Positions 2,496 through 10,448 of a stretch of 41,208 bases of DNA are shown one piece after another. A program made the position numbers and the translations under genes. The notes under the pieces are model-generated. The model did no database searches. It was not told the origin of the DNA and worked only from the letters and a program-made list of their open reading frames with translations. The stretch comes from a virus, in UHGV virus genome UHGV-0041851; one strand, 5' to 3'. Each line of letters begins with the position of its first letter. Position 1 is the stretch's first letter.

Positions 2496-2948
2496 ATGTT
2501 ACTTAACTGGCAGGGACGCCACTTCATGGAAATAAATCACTCACGAATAACATCGTACGAGATTGCGGATTACATGATCCGCACTAAATCTCTTCTATCA
2601 GCGAAAGAACTCGCAGCAATTCTTGAAAAGGAATACCCGCATCTGGATGTCGATAAGCGCGATGTTTATCTGCGCTTAAAGGCTATCGCTGTGTCTAAGT
2701 ATTCGTCTGTTTTGATTGATGACAGTACACGCCCACGTAGATTTCAGATCCACTCTCTGAATCCTGAATTCTTTCGCCGCAGCCGCGCTCCGCGCCGGTT
2801 TGATGAAAAACTCCAGAACGAACTCTATATGACGCAGGACGAAAAGGAACGCCGGGAGCACCAGCCTTGGGTAATGGCGCGTCAACTTTTCAATAAGGTG
2901 GCCCGTCAGCACCGTCATTACGGTAATGCCACATCCGCACGTATCTGA
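2496..2948 (+). CDS. lpa: Lpa, late promoter activator (gene 10)
   Basis: 150-aa ORF directly upstream of pacA with a C1 operator in front; true start may be the internal ATG at 2526 (MEINHSRITSY...). Confidence 0.6.
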   Translation: MLLNWQGRHFMEINHSRITSYEIADYMIRTKSLLSAKELAAILEKEYPHLDVDKRDVYLRLKAIAVSKYSSVLIDDSTRPRRFQIHSLNPEFFRRSRAPRRFDEKLQNELYMTQDEKERREHQPWVMARQLFNKVARQHRHYGNATSARI

Positions 2949-2974
2949 TTGATTGCTTGCCCGTTCCGGGCCTT

Positions 2975-2987
2975 TTGACATGTGACT
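2975..2987 (+). promoter_or_regulatory. Candidate late-promoter element upstream of pacA
   Basis: TTGACATGTGACT, one of four copies of the motif T-T/G-A/G-ACA-A/T-GTGA-C/T-T found in the same orientation upstream of late genes (pacA, mat, prt, lyz). Confidence 0.4.
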
Positions 2988-3033
2988 TTCGTTACCCTCG
3001 CGTCAAAAAGAGTTTTTACGAAAGGAAGCATAA

Positions 3034-4227
3034 GTGACCTGGGACGATCACAAGAAGAATTTTGCTCGCCTGGCGCGAGATGGTGGTTACACCATCGCAC
3101 AGTATGCCGCCGAGTTTAATCTTAACCCTAATACCGCACGTCGTTATCTCCGTGCCTTCAAAGAAGACACCAGGACTGCGGACAGCCGCAAGCCAAATAA
3201 GCCAGTCAGGAAGCCACTAAAAGGCATGATCATTGATCACTCTAATGATCAACATGCAGGTGATCATATTGCGGCTGAAATAGCGGAAAAACAGAGAGTT
3301 AATGCCGTTGTCAGTGCCGCAGTCGAGAATGCGAAGCGCCAAAATAAGCGCATAAATGATCGTTCAGATGATCATGACGTGATCACCCGCGCCCACCGGA
3401 CCTTACGTGATCGTCTGGAACGCGACACCCTGGATGATGATGGTGAACGCTTTGAATTCGAAGCTGGCGATTACCTGATAGATAACGTTGAAGCGCGGAA
3501 GGCCGCGCGCGCTATGTTGCGTCGGTCCGGGGCCGATGTTCTGGAAACCACTCTTCTTGAAAAGTCTCTTTCTCATCTCCTTATGCTGGAGAACGCCAGG
3601 GATACGTGTATTCGCCTGGTGCAGGAAATGCGCGATCAGCAAAAAGACGATGATGGAGGTACTCCGCCTGAATACCGTATCGCGAGCATGCTAAACAGCT
3701 GTTCCGCGCAGATAAGCAGTCTGATCAACACCATTTACAGCATCCGGAATAACTATCGAAAAGAAAGCCGGGAGGCGGAAAAGCACGCTTTGTCTATGGG
3801 GCAAGCTGGCATTGTTAAGCTGGCATACGAACGAAAGCGTGAAAATAACTGGTCAGTGCTGGAAGCAGCTGAATTCATCGAGGCGCATGGTGGGAAAGTT
3901 CCGCCCCTGATGCTGGAGCAAATCAAAGCCGATCTGCGTGCTCCTAAGACCAATACCGATGATGAGGAAAGGCAAACAGCCGTCGGTGGCCCTTCTCTTG
4001 AAGATCTGGACAAAGTTGCGCGAGAACGGGCCGCCAACCGCCGCGCCGATGCCGCATTGTGGATTGAGCAGCGTAGGGAAGAAATCGCCGATATCGTTGA
4101 TACAGGCGGTTATGGAGATGTTGATACTGAAGGTGTATCAAACGACCCATGGCTGGAACAAGACCTGGACGAAGACGAGGAGGAAGACGAAGAAGTTACC
4201 CGCAAGCTATACGGGGATGATGATTAA
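3034..4227 (+). CDS. pacA: PacA, terminase pac-recognition subunit
   Basis: 397-aa ORF (GTG start) [28 protein letters not shown]...; acidic C-terminal tail; contains the GATC-rich pac site. Confidence 0.9.
3225..3412 (+). other. pac packaging site (clustered GATC-containing hexamers)
   Basis: Two clusters of TGATCA/G-type elements inside pacA: four at 3226-3268 and three or four at 3357-3412, matching the known architecture of P1 pac. Confidence 0.8.
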
Positions 4228-5711
4228 TGGCCAGAAGTTGCGTAACGGATCCACGTTGGCGCGAGCTGGTGGCGCTATATCGTTATGACTGGATTGCTGC
4301 CGCTGATGTTTTGTTCGGCAAAACACCTACCTGGCAGCAGGATCTGATTATTGAGTCTGTGCAGGAACAGGGTAGCAAGACATCTGTTTCGTCTGGTCAC
4401 GGTACCGGGAAATCAGACATGACTTCTATCATGATCATGTTGTTCATAATCATGTATCCCGGTGCCCGCGCCATTATCGTTGCGAACAAAATTCAGCAGG
4501 TAATGACCGGTATATTCAAGTACATCAAGATAAACTGGGCTACTGCCACCAGCCGTTTTCCATGGCTTGCTGATTATTTTGTTCTGACAGAAACCGCTTT
4601 CTATGAGGTTACTGGTAAAGGTGTATGGACTGTAGTACCGAAGGGCTTTCGTCTGGGAAGTGAAGAAGCTCTCGCCGGTGAACACGCAGATCATCTTCTG
4701 TATATTATCGATGAAGCCTCCGGTGTCAGTGATAGAGCTTTCGGTATCATCACCGGTGCTCTTACCGGACAGGATAACCGCATCTTATTGCTGTCACAGC
4801 CTACACGCCCAAGCGGCTATTTCTACGATACACACCATAAACTGGCCAAGCGTCCTGGTAACCCTGATGGCGTTTATACGGCGATCACGCTTAACAGTGA
4901 GGAATCACCGTTGGTAACGCCAGCATTTATCAAAATGAAGCTGGCGGAGTACGGCGGGCGTGATAACCCTATGTACATGATTAAGGTACGCGGCCTATTC
5001 CCTAAATCACAGGATGGCTTCCTTCTTGGGCGTGATGAGGTTGAACGTGCAACGCGGCGGAAAGTCAAGATTGCAAAAGGATGGGGCTGGCTTGCATGTG
5101 TGGACGTTGCTGGTGGTACGGGACGGGATAAGTCCGTTATCAATATCATGATGGTGTCCGGCCAGCGAAATAAACGCCGTGTAATCAACTATCGAATGCT
5201 GGAATACACAGACGTTACAGAAACGCAGCTTGCCGCCAAAATTTTCGCAGAATGTAATCCTGAGCGATTCCCCAATATCACCATAGCGATAGACGGCGAT
5301 GGCCTGGGTAAAGCAACGGCGGATCTGATGTACGAGTATTATGGTATTACCGTACAGCGTATACGCTGGGGTAAAAAGATGCATAGCCGTGAAGATAAGA
5401 GCCTGTACTTTGATAAACGTGCTTATGCCAACGTTCAAGCCGCAGAGGCCGTAAAATCTGGTCGTATGAGACTGGATAAGGGTAATGAAACTATTGAGGA
5501 AGCGTCGAAAATCCCTGTAGGGATTAACTCCGCAGGTCAATGGAAGGTGATGAGTAAGGAGGATATGAAGAAAAAACTCAACCTGCACTCACCAGACCAT
5601 TGGGATACATATTGTTTCGCTATGCTGGCTGATTATGTTCCCCAGGATGAAGTGCTTAGCGTCGAAGACGAAGCGCAGGTTGATGAAGCTCTGGCATGGC
5701 TTAATGAATGA
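4227..5711 (+). CDS. pacB: PacB, terminase large subunit
   Basis: 494-aa ORF overlapping the pacA stop (ATGA); ATPase/nuclease-like length and operon position. Confidence 0.9.
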
Positions 5712-5714
5712 ATA

Positions 5715-5731
5715 TTTGCTCTAATAAATTG
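5715..5731 (+). promoter_or_regulatory. C1 operator-like site immediately after pacB
   Basis: TTTGCTCTAATAAATTG matches the C1 operator consensus at 15/17; lies at the head of the icd/ant leader region. Confidence 0.55.
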
Positions 5732-5744
5732 TGTTTTTTAACTA

Positions 5745-5885
5745 CCGATGTTACATTGAGCCTGACCTCTTGCGCCTTGAGGCATTTTCGGTTTATGCTT
5801 ATCAGGCACCTCATTAAAACGGGTGCCGGGATTGGCCTCCCGCTTAAGTCTAAGGCGATACAGACGCCGCTCGCGTCTTTTTTTT
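5745..5885 (+). ncRNA. Candidate c4-like antisense RNA / structured leader
   Basis: About 140 nt between the operator and an intrinsic terminator; contains hairpin GGCACC..GGTGCC and a CCUCC element (5836-5840) within ATTGGCCTCCCGCTTAAGTC that is imperfectly complementary to the icd ribosome-binding region (GTCTAAGGAGGCTGCCAAT, 6033-6051). Confidence 0.3.
5863..5885 (+). terminator. Rho-independent terminator-like hairpin plus T8
   Basis: GACGC-CGCTC-GCGTC stem-loop followed by TTTTTTTT. Confidence 0.55.
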
Positions 5886-6050
5886 GTATCGGCGTACACG
5901 CACACCTCTACAATGGTGGGCTGTATGGGGCTACCTTCGGGTAGGCTGGTTACCTTGGACGCCAGTAAGGCCAACTCCGTACAGTCCACCGCCAGCAAGA
6001 TTGGTCTCTTCTGCGGTGGTTACATACCAACGTCTAAGGAGGCTGCCAAT

Positions 6051-6272
6051 ATGGCTACTATCCCTACCCCAACTCATCCTGAATTTATCTGGCGCTTTTA
6101 CTCCTGCCAAAAACGTCACTATCACTTCGTTATTGCACCGACAGAAGATGAGGCCCGCTCTCAGCTTCCTGACGCCCCATGTATTTTCTCTGCCCGTTTT
6201 TCCACTGATTCACGCAATTCTCTCAGTTACTGGTGCCTCCCTGTTAACGCTTCTGCTCAGGAGGGACTATGA
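6051..6272 (+). CDS. icd: Icd-like small protein (73 aa) translationally coupled to ant
   Basis: ATG at 6051 preceded by TAAGGAGG at good spacing; 73 codons; stop overlaps the ant start (ATGA at 6269-6272); size and arrangement match P1 icd as I recall it. Confidence 0.55.
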   Translation: MATIPTPTHPEFIWRFYSCQKRHYHFVIAPTEDEARSQLPDAPCIFSARFSTDSRNSLSYWCLPVNASAQEGL

Positions 6273-7387
6273 GAACGTCATTAGTCACCCGTGAAGAGAT
6301 GATCGAGGCAATTGAACAGCACACTGCCTGTATCAGTACCAGGGATATACCAGGCGTTATTGCCAATTACTTCATGATCACCAAACAACTTTACCGGAGA
6401 AAGGACAAGAACGCGGTTCACCGTATCCTGTTGTCTGATATCCGCGAATACCTGCTCGAACAGGGTCATCTGAATTACGCAACCGCCGCAGCCGAAGCAC
6501 GCAAGGAGGCACACAGAATGAAAGCAACTAACGTTAAATCAGAAAAAATTCATGCACCTTCAGTTCAAGAATCGGAGCTGGTGGTTGTTCAGAATCAGTC
6601 TGATGAAATTCCCGTTCTGGAATGGCAGGGAGTGCGTGTAGTGACAACCGAGACTCTTGCTAGAGGGTATGGGACAGAAACAATCCGTATTCGCCAAAAT
6701 CATCATGAGAACAAAGTACGCTTTGTTGAAGGGAAGCACTTTTTCAAAGTTGAAGGAGAATCATTGCGCGAGTTGAAGCACAGAGTAGCTTTAAACTACT
6801 CTGTAAAAATTGCTCGCAATGTTCGCTCACTCACCCTCTGGACAGAACGCGGCGCAGCCCGCCACGCTAAAATGCTCGAAACCGATCAGGCATGGGCATT
6901 CTTTGAAAAACTGGAAGACAGCTACTTCCGACAAAAAGAACAGCAACCGATCGCAATCCCCCAGACGCTTCCTGAAGCCCTACGCCTGGCTGCCGAACTG
7001 GCTGAACAAAAGCAACTTCTGGAACAGAAAGCCCACCAGCTAAATCAGCAGCTGGTGGCCGCCGCTCCTAAAGTCGATTTTGCCGACCGGGTATCAGTAG
7101 CTAAAGGGATCCTGATTGGGAATTTTGCAAAGGTTGTTGGACTTAAACAAAACGCGCTGTTTGTCTGGTTACGGGAGAACGGCATCCTGATAGCGTCCGG
7201 TGGACGTAAAAATGTGCCGTTCCAGCAGTACATCAACGCGGGGTATTTCACGGTGAAAGAAGTGGTGCTGGATGATGAAGATGGCTACCAGATACGGTTG
7301 ACGCCTCAATTAACGGGTAAAGGCCAGCAGTGGTTGACGCGTAAACTGCTCGATGCTGGCTTGTTAAAACCGGTGGCGGCTGAATAA
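6269..7387 (+). CDS. ant1: Antirepressor Ant1 (ORF6N-like central domain, KilA-C-like C-terminus); nested Ant2 from in-frame ATG at 6518
   Basis: 372 aa (about 42 kDa); in-frame ATG at codon 84 has a strong AAGGAGG Shine-Dalgarno and gives 289 aa (about 32 kDa), matching the reported 42/32-kDa Ant1/Ant2 pair; domain call is from motif recognition only. Confidence 0.7.
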   Translation: MRTSLVTREEMIEAIEQHTACISTRDIPGVIANYFMITKQLYRRKDKNAVHRILLSDIREYLLEQGHLNYATAAAEARKEAHRMKATNVKSEKIHAPSVQESELVVVQNQSDEIPVLEWQGVRVVTTETLARGYGTETIRIRQNHHENKVRFVEGKHFFKVEGESLRELKHRVALNYSVKIARNVRSLTLWTERGAARHAKMLETDQAWAFFEKLEDSYFRQKEQQPIAIPQTLPEALRLAAELAEQKQLLEQKAHQLNQQLVAAAPKVDFADRVSVAKGILIGNFAKVVGLKQNALFVWLRENGILIASGGRKNVPFQQYINAGYFTVKEVVLDDEDGYQIRLTPQLTGKGQQWLTRKLLDAGLLKPVAAE

Positions 7388-7419
7388 TGGAAGAATGCCC
7401 GGTTGATGCCGGGCATAAT

Positions 7420-8271
7420 TTATTGCGCGCTTTCGGGGTTGTCGTTTACTGGCTGCCCCTTCTTGGTTTTACGGCTGCGCGTAACTGATGCGGCTGACTT
7501 AACCTTTTTCTCTTCGCGAGTGATGGCAATTTGTTTTTTTACATTTTCAATATCTGCCAGGCGATATATTTTTGCTTGCGGCCAGCGGTCGCAGATGATC
7601 GGTTCTATGGAGTCATAAAGGCTAAATTTTGCTTTTTCGAATTCACCGTTGATGATAATTCCATCACGGAGAGTTTCATCGCAGATAAACACGCCACACA
7701 GTGGCACATGGTAACTAACTGATTTACCATCATTGTAGTTAGGGCTACTGGAAATGTAGTGGACGCGCAGCATTGTTTCGCTAAAGCCGTGTACGCGCAT
7801 ACGGAATTTTTCATCCTCCGGGTACTGCTTCATTAGCTCTTTTGTTGCTTCTAGGTTCTCTATGTATTTCGCACTGTGCTCATTGATCCCCGCGCTTTTT
7901 TGGATGCGAATGTCCTTATCAATCAGATGAATAATGCGGCCAGCGGTCATGTTGACGCTGTTCACAGCTTCTGTCTGATAAGTTGTAACCTTACGCACAC
8001 CGCGAAGGATGTTAGGCACTGGATATAAAATAGTCTTTGGGATATTGAGGTCTGGGTACTGTTCCAGTTCCCGCGCCATTAAAGTCCATTTATCAATTTC
8101 AGCCTGAATGCTGTCAGTTTCTTTGAACGGTAGAACGACAACCGGGCGTACAGGACGACCGTCGCTGGCTGTATCAACGTGTTGGGCGCGTGCAACAGCT
8201 TTTTTTAGAAAGAGATCCCTGAAGCTGACGAACTCCTGGTACAGTTGTTCGCCGTAGACATAATTTATCAT
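7420..8271 (-). CDS. c1: C1 repressor of lysis
   Basis: 283-aa ORF of the length reported for P1 C1; flanked upstream by coi and operator-like sites; convergent with ant. Confidence 0.9.
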   Translation of the reverse strand: MINYVYGEQLYQEFVSFRDLFLKKAVARAQHVDTASDGRPVRPVVVLPFKETDSIQAEIDKWTLMARELEQYPDLNIPKTILYPVPNILRGVRKVTTYQTEAVNSVNMTAGRIIHLIDKDIRIQKSAGINEHSAKYIENLEATKELMKQYPEDEKFRMRVHGFSETMLRVHYISSSPNYNDGKSVSYHVPLCGVFICDETLRDGIIINGEFEKAKFSLYDSIEPIICDRWPQAKIYRLADIENVKKQIAITREEKKVKSAASVTRSRKTKKGQPVNDNPESAQ

Positions 8272-8365: not shown

Positions 8366-8382
8366 AGATTTATTAGTGCATT
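8366..8382 (-). promoter_or_regulatory. C1 operator-like site between coi and c1
   Basis: Minus-strand AATGCACTAATAAATCT, an ATTGCACTAATAAATCT-type operator variant, overlapping the coi stop. Confidence 0.5.
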
Positions 8383-8591
8383 TATTGTGAGTCTAACTGG
8401 TTAGTTGCCATGAGATATTCGATTGTGTCAGTGAGGTCATCCAAGTCGTCTTGGGTGATGCGGTACTCCTGATTGGATATCTTTGAGTAGTGTTCAGCAA
8501 TGGCGCGGGCAGCGTCGGTTTCGGCAGGGTCTACAGATAAAGCGTTAGAGCAATGTCTAACGTCGTCGATGGTTGGTTGAATGAAAGCCAT
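8382..8591 (-). CDS. coi: Coi, C1 inactivator
   Basis: 69-aa ORF immediately upstream of c1 on the same strand, matching P1 coi size and position. Confidence 0.8.
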   Translation of the reverse strand: MAFIQPTIDDVRHCSNALSVDPAETDAARAIAEHYSKISNQEYRITQDDLDDLTDTIEYLMATNQLDSQ

Positions 8592-8829
8592 AATTATGCC
8601 TCACTGTATTGACAACACAGAGCCTGAAGCTCTGACCTACTGTTTCACCCATGATCCATGCTGGGGTAATCTAACAACATTGCGCTGTGTGTAAGATGAG
8701 CAATGCATAGCTGTAATGCCGTTGTATAAGGTTTCCCTGTTTGCTCATTTCCTTCTGAGCCGCTCTACAACGCTGAAGACACATTAAATAGTGAATCCAA
8801 AGTCGTATTACGTAACGGCGGCAAAACTA

Positions 8830-8846
8830 TAATTTATTAGAGCAAT
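8830..8846 (-). promoter_or_regulatory. C1 operator (Op99-type)
   Basis: Minus strand reads ATTGCTCTAATAAATTA, 16/17 to consensus. Confidence 0.6.
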
Positions 8847-8912
8847 TGTCAAACAACTATGAAAAACAATCCAGTTTTTAGCTGGTGGAGTGGGATTTTT
8901 CTCTCAAAATTT

Positions 8913-8929
8913 ATTGCTCTAATAATTCT
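8913..8929 (+). promoter_or_regulatory. C1 operator (Op99-type)
   Basis: ATTGCTCTAATAATTCT, 14/17 to consensus. Confidence 0.55.
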
Positions 8930-9416: not shown

Positions 9417-10448
9417 ATGTCCAATTTACTGACCGTACACCAAAATTTGCCTGCATTGCCGGTCGATGCAACGAGTGATGAGGTTCGCAAGAACCTGATG
9501 GACATGTTCAGGGATCGCCAGGCGTTTTCTGAGCATACCTGGAAAATGCTTCTGTCCGTTTGCCGGTCATGGGCGGCATGGTGCAAGTTGAATAACCGGA
9601 AATGGTTTCCCGCAGAACCTGAAGATGTTCGCGATTATCTTCTATATCTTCAGGCGCGCGGTCTGGCAGTAAAAACTATCCAGCAACATTTGGGCCAGCT
9701 AAACATGCTTCATCGTCGGTCCGGGCTGCCGCGACTAAGTGACAGCAATGCTGTTTCACTGGTTATGCGGCGGATCCGAAAAGAAAACGTTGATGCCGGT
9801 GAACGTGCAAAACAGGCACTAGCGTTCGAACGCACTGATTTCGACCAGGTTCGTTCACTCATGGAAAATAGCGATCGCTGCCAGGATATACGTAATCTGG
9901 CATTTCTGGGGATTGCTTATAACACCCTGTTACGTATAGCCGAAATTGCCAGGATCAGGGTTAAAGATATCTCACGTACTGACGGTGGGAGAATGTTAAT
10001 CCATATTGGCAGAACGAAAACGCTGGTTAGCACCGCAGGTGTAGAGAAGGCACTTAGCCTGGGGGTAACTAAACTGGTCGAGCGATGGATTTCTGTCTCT
10101 GGTGTGGCTGATGATCCGAATAACTACTTGTTTTGCCGGGTCAGAAAAAATGGTGTTGCCTCGCCATCACCCACCAGCCAGCTATCAACTCGCGCCCTGG
10201 AAGGGATTTTTGAAGCAACTCACCGATTGATTTACGGGGCTAAGGATGACTCTGGCCAGAGGTACCTGGCCTGGTCTGGACACAGTGCCCGTGTCGGAGC
10301 CGCGCGAGATATGGCCCGTGCCGGAGTTTCAATACCGGAGATCATGCAAGCTGGTGGCTGGACCAACGTAAATATTGTCATGAACTATATCCGTAACCTG
10401 GATAGTGAAACAGGGGCAATGGTGCGCCTGCTGGAAGATGGCGATTAG
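9417..10448 (+). CDS. cre: Cre tyrosine recombinase
   Basis: 343-aa product MSNLLTVHQNLPALPVDATSDEVRKNLMDMFRDRQAFSEHTWKMLLSVCRSWAAWCKLNNRKWFPAEPEDVRDYLLYLQARGLAVKTIQQHLGQLNMLHRRSGLPR... recognised as Cre; about 410 bp downstream of loxP. Confidence 0.98.
   Translation: MSNLLTVHQNLPALPVDATSDEVRKNLMDMFRDRQAFSEHTWKMLLSVCRSWAAWCKLNNRKWFPAEPEDVRDYLLYLQARGLAVKTIQQHLGQLNMLHRRSGLPRLSDSNAVSLVMRRIRKENVDAGERAKQALAFERTDFDQVRSLMENSDRCQDIRNLAFLGIAYNTLLRIAEIARIRVKDISRTDGGRMLIHIGRTKTLVSTAGVEKALSLGVTKLVERWISVSGVADDPNNYLFCRVRKNGVASPSPTSQLSTRALEGIFEATHRLIYGAKDDSGQRYLAWSGHSARVGAARDMARAGVSIPEIMQAGGWTNVNIVMNYIRNLDSETGAMVRLLEDGD

Follow-up and report, generated by a model that had tools for sequence, protein, structure and literature searches.

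In phage P1, the c4 RNA of the immI region represses the synthesis of Ant1 and Ant2, which antagonise the repressor C1 (PMC8546580), and the P1 RefSeq record notes that icd is "apparently required for expression of ant". We analysed a stretch of 41,208 nucleotides from the virus genome UHGV-0041851 (the window), which is part of a P1-like (Punavirus) phage-plasmid and carries, at positions 5712-7419 between pacB and c1, a module that closely resembles the immI region of P1 and its relative P7. An earlier note, made from the letters of this DNA, had recognised the layout and offered three readings: a relocated antirepressor circuit, an additional one, or a P1 relative with different synteny. 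Our data make it likely, with good confidence, that the module gives this phage-plasmid a second immunity circuit of the immI type, self-contained and additional to canonical immI. Judged from its sequence, it is probably a complete second P1-type RNA-controlled antirepressor switch in working order.

The module matched annotated P1 immI element for element, as the earlier note had supposed. All the elements named in that note were recovered, and their positions agreed to within one or two bases. It has a C4 RNA upstream of icd on the same strand, complements of the c4 sites a' and b', an Icd-like open reading frame (ORF), nested ant1 and ant2 genes, and the sequence of a C1 operator. The parts and their order are those of P1/P7 immI, with near-identical spacing: operator, promoters, a1, b1, terminator-like hairpin, c4, a2, b2 together with the Shine-Dalgarno (SD) sequence of icd, icd, ant1 and ant2. 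As in P1/P7, the C1 operator extends over the first -35 element, b2 covers the icd SD, icd and ant1 overlap in the sequence ATGA, and ant2 starts at codon 84. Four differences were observed. The module lies between pacB and c1, whereas the canonical map site extends from sim to kilA-repL; its leader matches the Rfam family isrK, whereas that of P1 matches c4-a1b1; its pairing sequences are TTGGYCT (a) and GTCTAAGG (b), as opposed to TTGACAG and GTTAGTGA in P1; and the centre of its Ant protein is replaced by an ORF6N domain.

The leader also relates the module to isrK-orf45-anrP of Gifsy-1 (Salmonella). Both have an isrK-family leader with an intrinsic terminator, at which read-through occurs in Gifsy-1, an RNA downstream, represented in Gifsy-1 by the processed, stable STnc1160 that is complementary to IsrK, and a small upstream ORF that in Gifsy-1 is translationally coupled to the antirepressor-like gene (PMC4825925). 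In the module, however, the small ORF is icd-like (73 amino acids) and not orf45, a C1 operator and nested ant1/ant2 are present, and antQ is absent. In Gifsy-1, the short terminated isrK RNA acts in trans on its read-through form and thereby switches on translation of the small ORF and the antirepressor (PMC4825925). A more distant likeness is found in the CI RNA of P4 (seqA/seqC), also a small-RNA immunity factor processed from the transcript that it controls, with complementary sites on both sides. SeqA has been termed a structural homolog of IsrK, but CI acts by terminating the transcription of replication genes prematurely (PMC4825925), and its locus has neither an icd/ant cargo nor an operator for a protein repressor.

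Anatomy of the module

In the P1 reference (NC_005856), pacB ends at 93206 and c1 at 93231. The gap is 24 bp, in agreement with the statement in the earlier note that c1 directly follows pacB in P1, and no icd-ant pair is native to this junction. The corresponding gap in the window measures 1708 bp (5712-7419), and this stretch is thus extra DNA that exactly replaces the spacer. Both flanking proteins are P1-like, with 89% identity for PacB and, for C1, two differences from P1 c1.100 among 283 residues. At the DNA level, megablast identity between the module and P1 was limited to the 3' end of ant (~330 bp). The following features were identified in the module.

5715-5731, plus strand: C1 operator-like site, equivalent to P1 Oc4/Op51 (TTTGCTCTAATAAATTG; 15/17 consensus matches)
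5729-5757, plus strand: putative first promoter, operator-controlled, equivalent to P1 P2c4/P51a (TTGTGT-17-TACATT)
5770-5799, plus strand: putative second promoter, outside the operator, equivalent to P1 P1c4/P51b (TTGCGC-18-TATGCT)
5806-5885, plus strand: isrK-type leader RNA (Rfam RF01394 at 5806-5883, 60.8 bits, model positions 1-77 of 77)
5832-5838, plus strand: a1, TTGGCCT, in the hairpin loop of the folded leader
5848-5855, plus strand: b1, GTCTAAGG, in an unpaired linker of the folded leader
5862-5878 (stem) and 5878-5885 (T8), plus strand: intrinsic terminator ending the leader, found by terminator scan and identical to the last isrK hairpin
5909-5996, plus strand: C4 antisense RNA (Rfam RF01695, 75.9 bits, E 3e-13, full-length model match)
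5953-5960, plus strand: b', CCTTGGAC, in a c4 hairpin loop
5968-5974, plus strand: a', AGGCCAA, in an unpaired joint of c4
6001-6007, plus strand: a2, TTGGTCT, a few bases 3' of c4
6032-6039, plus strand: b2, GTCTAAGG, overlapping the icd SD (6035-6042)
6051-6272, plus strand: icd, 73 amino acids, with the SD TAAGGAGG at 6035-6042, eight bases upstream
6269-7387, plus strand: ant1, 372 amino acids, with a P1-like N-terminal extension, an ORF6N centre and a KilAC C-terminus
6518-7387, plus strand: ant2, 289 amino acids, from an in-frame internal ATG (codon 84) with the SD AAGGAGG at 6503-6509

The C1 operator-like site that the earlier note had placed right after pacB was found to begin 3 nt downstream of the pacB stop codon. 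Its last bases overlap the -35 element of the first promoter, with offsets equal to those of P1 Oc4. The window contains 7 such sites with ≤3 mismatches, compared with 0.31 expected by chance, and none of 100 shuffles reached 7. The offsets of the first promoter from the operator are identical to those of annotated P1 P2c4 (TTGTAT-17-TATCTT). The -35 element of the second promoter lies at offset +55 from the operator start, as in annotated P1c4, and its predicted start at ~5806 coincides with isrK model position 1. A consensus promoter scan called no plus-strand promoter in 5712-5810, and both promoters are therefore assigned solely by positional homology to the annotated P1 promoters. The other C1-operator-like sites (≤3 mismatches) are located at 2409, 8366, 8830, 8913, 24955 and 28805; by position, the site at 2409, upstream of lpa, and those at 8366-8913, around c1/coi/cre, correspond to the known P1 operators Olpa and Oc1a-e.

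Only two Rfam families were detected in the window, namely, isrK and C4 (gathering scores of 50 and 45 bits, respectively), and both lie inside the module. The leader combined the match to the isrK covariance model with an intrinsic terminator and gave no match to the c4-a1b1 family (RF03163), which was matched by the canonical immI of P1, P7 and phage vB_EcoM-673R5 (673R5). The structured leader of roughly 150 nt that had been proposed does end in a terminator, but it represents only one part of the RNA region, the isrK leader with a1 and b1. The c4 RNA implied by the proposed layout, to which no position had been given, is present and follows the terminator. Folding of the c4 stretch resulted in the expected three-way structure, with a minimum free energy of -41.6 kcal/mol (z = -3.76). 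The complements of a' and b' measure 7 nt and 8 nt; a single G-U pair occurs in each of a2, b1 and b2, and a1 is free of such pairs.

In RefSeq/PGAP annotation, a partial 'ash family protein' pseudogene is placed exactly on the c4 RNA (window 5913-6026; positions 2702-2815 of the related locus L063). This label is repeated in many Escherichia coli records and apparently reflects an RNA gene annotated in error as part of a protein, a recurrent mis-annotation that can now be flagged.

The protein-coding part agreed with the earlier description of a 73-codon ORF with a strong ribosome-binding site, a 372-amino-acid ORF of antirepressor type that overlaps its stop, and an internal in-frame start preceded by AAGGAGG. 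The TGA of icd and the ATG of ant1 overlap at 6269-6272. Icd shares 80% identity with its P1 counterpart (E 3e-41) and scores 48.1 bits against the NCBIfam family NF033153 phage_ICD_like (cut-off, 25), and Pfam identified ORF6N (E 2e-19) and ANT/KilAC (E 4e-31) in Ant1. The ant2 start codon is the same as that of annotated P1 ant2, in an almost identical SD context. Ant1 is 56% identical to P1 Ant1 overall, with 58% over residues 1-100, 20% over 101-230 and 87% over 231-372 (the KilAC domain), and Pfam found no ORF6N domain in P1 Ant1. By these alignments, it is a mosaic relative of P1 Ant1. The proteins closest to its centre in tblastn searches (~57-64%) were annotated as Roi/antirepressor and belong to Shiga toxin (Stx)-converting, HK620 and mEp phages. 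Such Roi/Ant-type ORF6N-KilAC proteins of lambdoid and Stx-converting phages align with the centre and C-terminus of the module Ant at 57-64%, but only from approximately residue 101-122 on, and no P1-type Ant1 N-terminal extension was seen in the tblastn search.

Pairing codes and predicted mode of action

A search of IMG/VR for exact matches to 23 nt of the leader retrieved 55 loci. In all 55, pacB lies directly upstream, so that a lambdoid-prophage origin of the exact leader is unsupported; on E. coli chromosomes, the leader, c4 and the beginning of icd were matched at only 84-87%. Almost all of the 55 loci have intact reading frames. The operator-like sequence is kept in 55 of the 55 related loci with a full left flank, 45 of which have the exact 14-nt core and 10 a single change.

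Across these loci, the six sites (a1, a', a2, b1, b' and b2) fell into five internally complementary classes and one recombinant. The five classes are built from three a codes and three b codes and represent 5 of the 9 possible combinations. We aligned the 19 distinct sequences and scored 15 pairs for covariation. Standard pairs accounted for 99.6% at a1:a' and b1:b' and for 100% at a':a2 and b':b2, and 7 of the 15 pairs showed changes on both sides. In control alignments in which the partner was slid by 1-3 columns, pairing was only 22-55%. The observed covariation scores of 0.484 and 0.490 were reached by none of 500 shuffles, a count that is not a probability because the sequences are related. 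The occurrence of the same compensatory changes at three separated places, with a and b codes in several combinations, is hard to explain without selection on pairing. These coherent covarying codes argue for a working RNA switch.

The same data bear on the view that an earlier insertion left the module behind as an inert remnant without function at present, which we regard as hardly credible. Copies interrupted by insertion sequences (IS), such as those in NC_013370 and NZ_CP060066, would fit a decaying element, but the intact frames in nearly all 55 loci, the conservation of the operator and the ribosome-binding sites, and the strict covariation of RNA-RNA sites at three separate places do not, nor does the presence of the module in 290 plasmids and 279 complete genomes.

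The first ~126 nt of the module (window 5709-5834), which include the operator, the promoters and the first isrK hairpin, show almost no variation between module variants whose identity elsewhere is only 87-92%. The abrupt divergence from a1 onward suggests an exchange of cassettes with a breakpoint in the leader. The recombinant module, at 2828-5309 of locus L039, has an a1 (TTGAGAC) that is mismatched to its own a' and a2 (GTTCCAA/TTGGAAC). Its Ant is only 55% identical to that of the window, and a sok antitoxin RNA is encoded nearby (1461-1634).

Predicted duplex energies ranged from -21 to -24 kcal/mol for cognate pairs and from -6.9 to -8.2 kcal/mol for the module c4 on the canonical immI targets of P1, P7 or 673R5. 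The predicted cross pair of P1 and P7, which are reported to be heteroimmune (PMC6906374), reached -11.5 and -13.0 kcal/mol and was thus stronger than the pairing of the module c4 with canonical targets. The module c4 is therefore predicted to have a specificity that does not overlap with that of canonical P1- or P7-type immI. With a pairing code distinct from both, the module would be a second independent lock on superinfection immunity. Among the module classes themselves, an asymmetric cross-reaction is predicted, with -20.2 kcal/mol for class B c4 on class C targets through G-U pairs and -14.7 kcal/mol for class C c4 on class B targets (e.g., loci L009 and L012 for these two classes).

By analogy with P1, promoter use, c4 processing, translational coupling, polarity and the binding of Ant to C1 can be pictured as follows. 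The leader, c4, icd and ant would be transcribed from one C1-repressible and one operator-free promoter, and in a lysogen C1 would damp the former. Once c4 is excised from the transcript, its exposed a' and b' would pair with a2 and b2 of the mRNA. Pairing at b2 would mask the icd ribosome-binding site, so that icd stays untranslated, and Ant1/Ant2 synthesis would be off as well through the coupling of ant1 to icd by the ATGA overlap. With little or no c4 available, Icd and Ant1/Ant2 would be made and Ant would antagonise C1. In the same way, a genome that enters a cell without matching c4 would produce Ant, and C1 would be counteracted. The strict covariation between a1/b1 and c4 suggests that the ~80-nt leader RNA binds c4 and could be a decoy; this short a1/b1 RNA may titrate c4 and thereby switch icd and ant on.

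The last step of this scheme has an alternative. The RNA switch may work while the ORF6N centre directs the module Ant either to DNA, as has been proposed for Roi-like proteins, or to a different repressor, for instance one encoded by a lambdoid prophage in the same cell. The module would then serve for cross-talk or as a helper and not as a second P1 immunity lock. The composition of Ant is what speaks for this possibility, since residues 101-230 are far closer to Roi/antirepressor-annotated proteins (~57-64%) than to P1 Ant (20%) and the ORF6N domain found there is missing from P1 Ant1. The rest of the protein, however, is P1-like at its N-terminus (58%) and in KilAC (87%) and retains the Ant1/Ant2 nesting, the module's own promoter carries a C1 operator that is conserved in all related loci, and the exact leader occurs only in P1-like contexts after pacB. 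Considering both sides, we judge another target unlikely, though it deserves more weight than the other alternatives weighed here, and favour C1 as the target.

Canonical immI in related phage-plasmids

The module is also found between pacB and c1 in 673R5 (99.6% identity over the whole module), RCS47 (92%) and JL22 (87%). All three keep a canonical copy with the arrangement c4-a1b1/C4/icd/ant, at the following positions.

80694-82355 of 673R5: canonical immI, adjoining sim/kilA
43320-44932 of JL22: canonical immI, adjoining sim/kilA
52685-54293 of RCS47: canonical immI, adjoining sim/kilA

Since these relatives carry both circuits, their pacB-c1 module is an extra copy and not a relocated one. 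A relocated immI is thereby ruled out for 673R5, RCS47 and JL22, and among the readings in the earlier note that of an additional circuit in a P1 relative receives support. The second c4-icd-ant locus for which that note had advised a search was present in these relatives; the window itself contains no second C4/icd/ant and ends ~16 kb before the canonical immI position (the window end lies ~32 kb past cre, and P1 immI at ~48 kb).

For the source of UHGV-0041851, the module could instead be the sole immI, either because it was relocated or because the canonical copy was lost. Only one C4/icd/ant is seen in the window, beyond which the canonical site lies, some plasmid records contain a single place that matches the query, and P1-like elements with a lost or modified immI have been described (PMC6906374). 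The closest relatives nevertheless argue the other way: both copies are present in 673R5, which is 99.6% identical over the module, as well as in JL22 and RCS47, and most of the 99.9%-identical plasmids have at least two matching places. A sole immI is accordingly improbable in our view.

Several observations weigh against an additional circuit that acts on C1 as in P1. Because the window stops short of the canonical site, the word additional is, for the source of UHGV-0041851, drawn from its relatives. Both promoters are weak by consensus and fall below the scan threshold. The isrK-type leader, given that isrK of Gifsy-1 is a trans-activator, means that the regulatory logic may differ from that of P1 in detail. 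Finally, the 20% identity to P1 Ant in the central 130 residues of the module Ant means that the protein target might not be C1.

Distribution, further circuits and neighbouring features

The anatomy, homology and covariation of the module were observed in the sequences compared above, and its distribution was likewise read directly from plasmid and genome collections. In PLSDB, 290 plasmid records contained ≥80% of the module and 314 a contiguous P1-type pacB-c1 junction. Among 5426 complete E. coli genomes, 279 harbored the module, mostly on plasmids. P1 and P7 lack the insertion, like about half of the P1-like plasmids in PLSDB, and the textbook P1 map is to be corrected accordingly for wild relatives.

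The arrangement is an already known, widespread polymorphism of P1-like elements and not a discovery. Venturini et al. (2019) mentioned an insertion of ant between pacB and c1 and likened it to that in RCS47 (PMC6906374), and the RCS47 record FO818745 annotates "ant" at this site. RefSeq names the module genes "host cell division inhibitor Icd-like protein" and "phage antirepressor KilAC domain-containing protein". As far as the literature could be searched, the module is covered by that one-sentence mention in PMC6906374 and by no functional study, and we found neither a recognition of the full operator-c4-icd-ant circuit nor an account of separate pairing codes.

Besides the pacB-c1 copy, some loci contained a further complete C4/icd/ant beyond cre (L010, 6-1466; L024, 1830-3411; L044, 1299-2883). 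The leader of this module is of the P1 c4-a1b1 type in L024 and L044, and the L010 locus begins inside c4. Together with canonical immI and the pacB-c1 module, the beyond-cre module would amount to three circuits per element; it fits the RD-1 region of pSvP1 (PMC6906374) and the 3-5 places per record obtained in the plasmid and E. coli genome searches. In another locus (L025, 1-2709), pacB is followed by two tandem modules of the pacB-c1 type, each of which has its own isrK-type leader and C4; their leader anchors lie 1566 bp apart.

It is conceivable, though we lean slightly against it, that as many as three separate c4-icd-ant circuits (canonical immI, pacB-c1 and beyond cre), each with its own code, operate in P1-like phage-plasmids and that the pacB-c1 copy has at least five covarying codes that recombine as cassettes. 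No paper on multi-circuit, multi-code immunity of P1-like elements was found, as far as the literature could be searched. If the circuits are independent, immunity would be a combination lock, in which an incoming phage escapes the resident unless every c4 code is matched, and diversifying, frequency-dependent selection would then act on the c4 codes. Among these phage-plasmids of E. coli and Salmonella, an important group in which resistance genes are often carried, the module is a common polymorphism and probably helps to decide superinfection, induction and exclusion among P1-like elements. Its variants also provide a natural set of matched RNAs and targets with which the specificity of RNA-based immunity can be tested.

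The genes around the module follow the P1 order, beginning with pacA.

3034-4227: pacA
4227-5711: pacB, with its stop codon at 5709-5711
7395-7416: G+C-rich hairpin between the convergent ant and c1 stops (9-bp stem, 6 G-C pairs)
7420-8271, minus strand: c1, with its 3' end at 7420, convergent with the module
8382-8591: coi
9417-10448: cre

The hairpin at 7395-7416 is a likely bidirectional terminator. It has the heptamer ATGCCGG in common with the P1 pacB-c1 spacer (NC_005856, 93207-93230). P1 could be a deletion derivative instead of the ancestral state. Two PacB alleles were linked to the module in loci L008-L062, ~100% and ~88.7% identical to the window protein, and C1 in these loci was at least 97% identical, with at least 99% in all except L019. 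In some plasmids, IS1203 and ISSen4 are inserted into the module between icd and ant (L058, 7415-8728, which corresponds to NC_013370; NZ_CP060066, 96384-99316), and these copies are probably inactivated.

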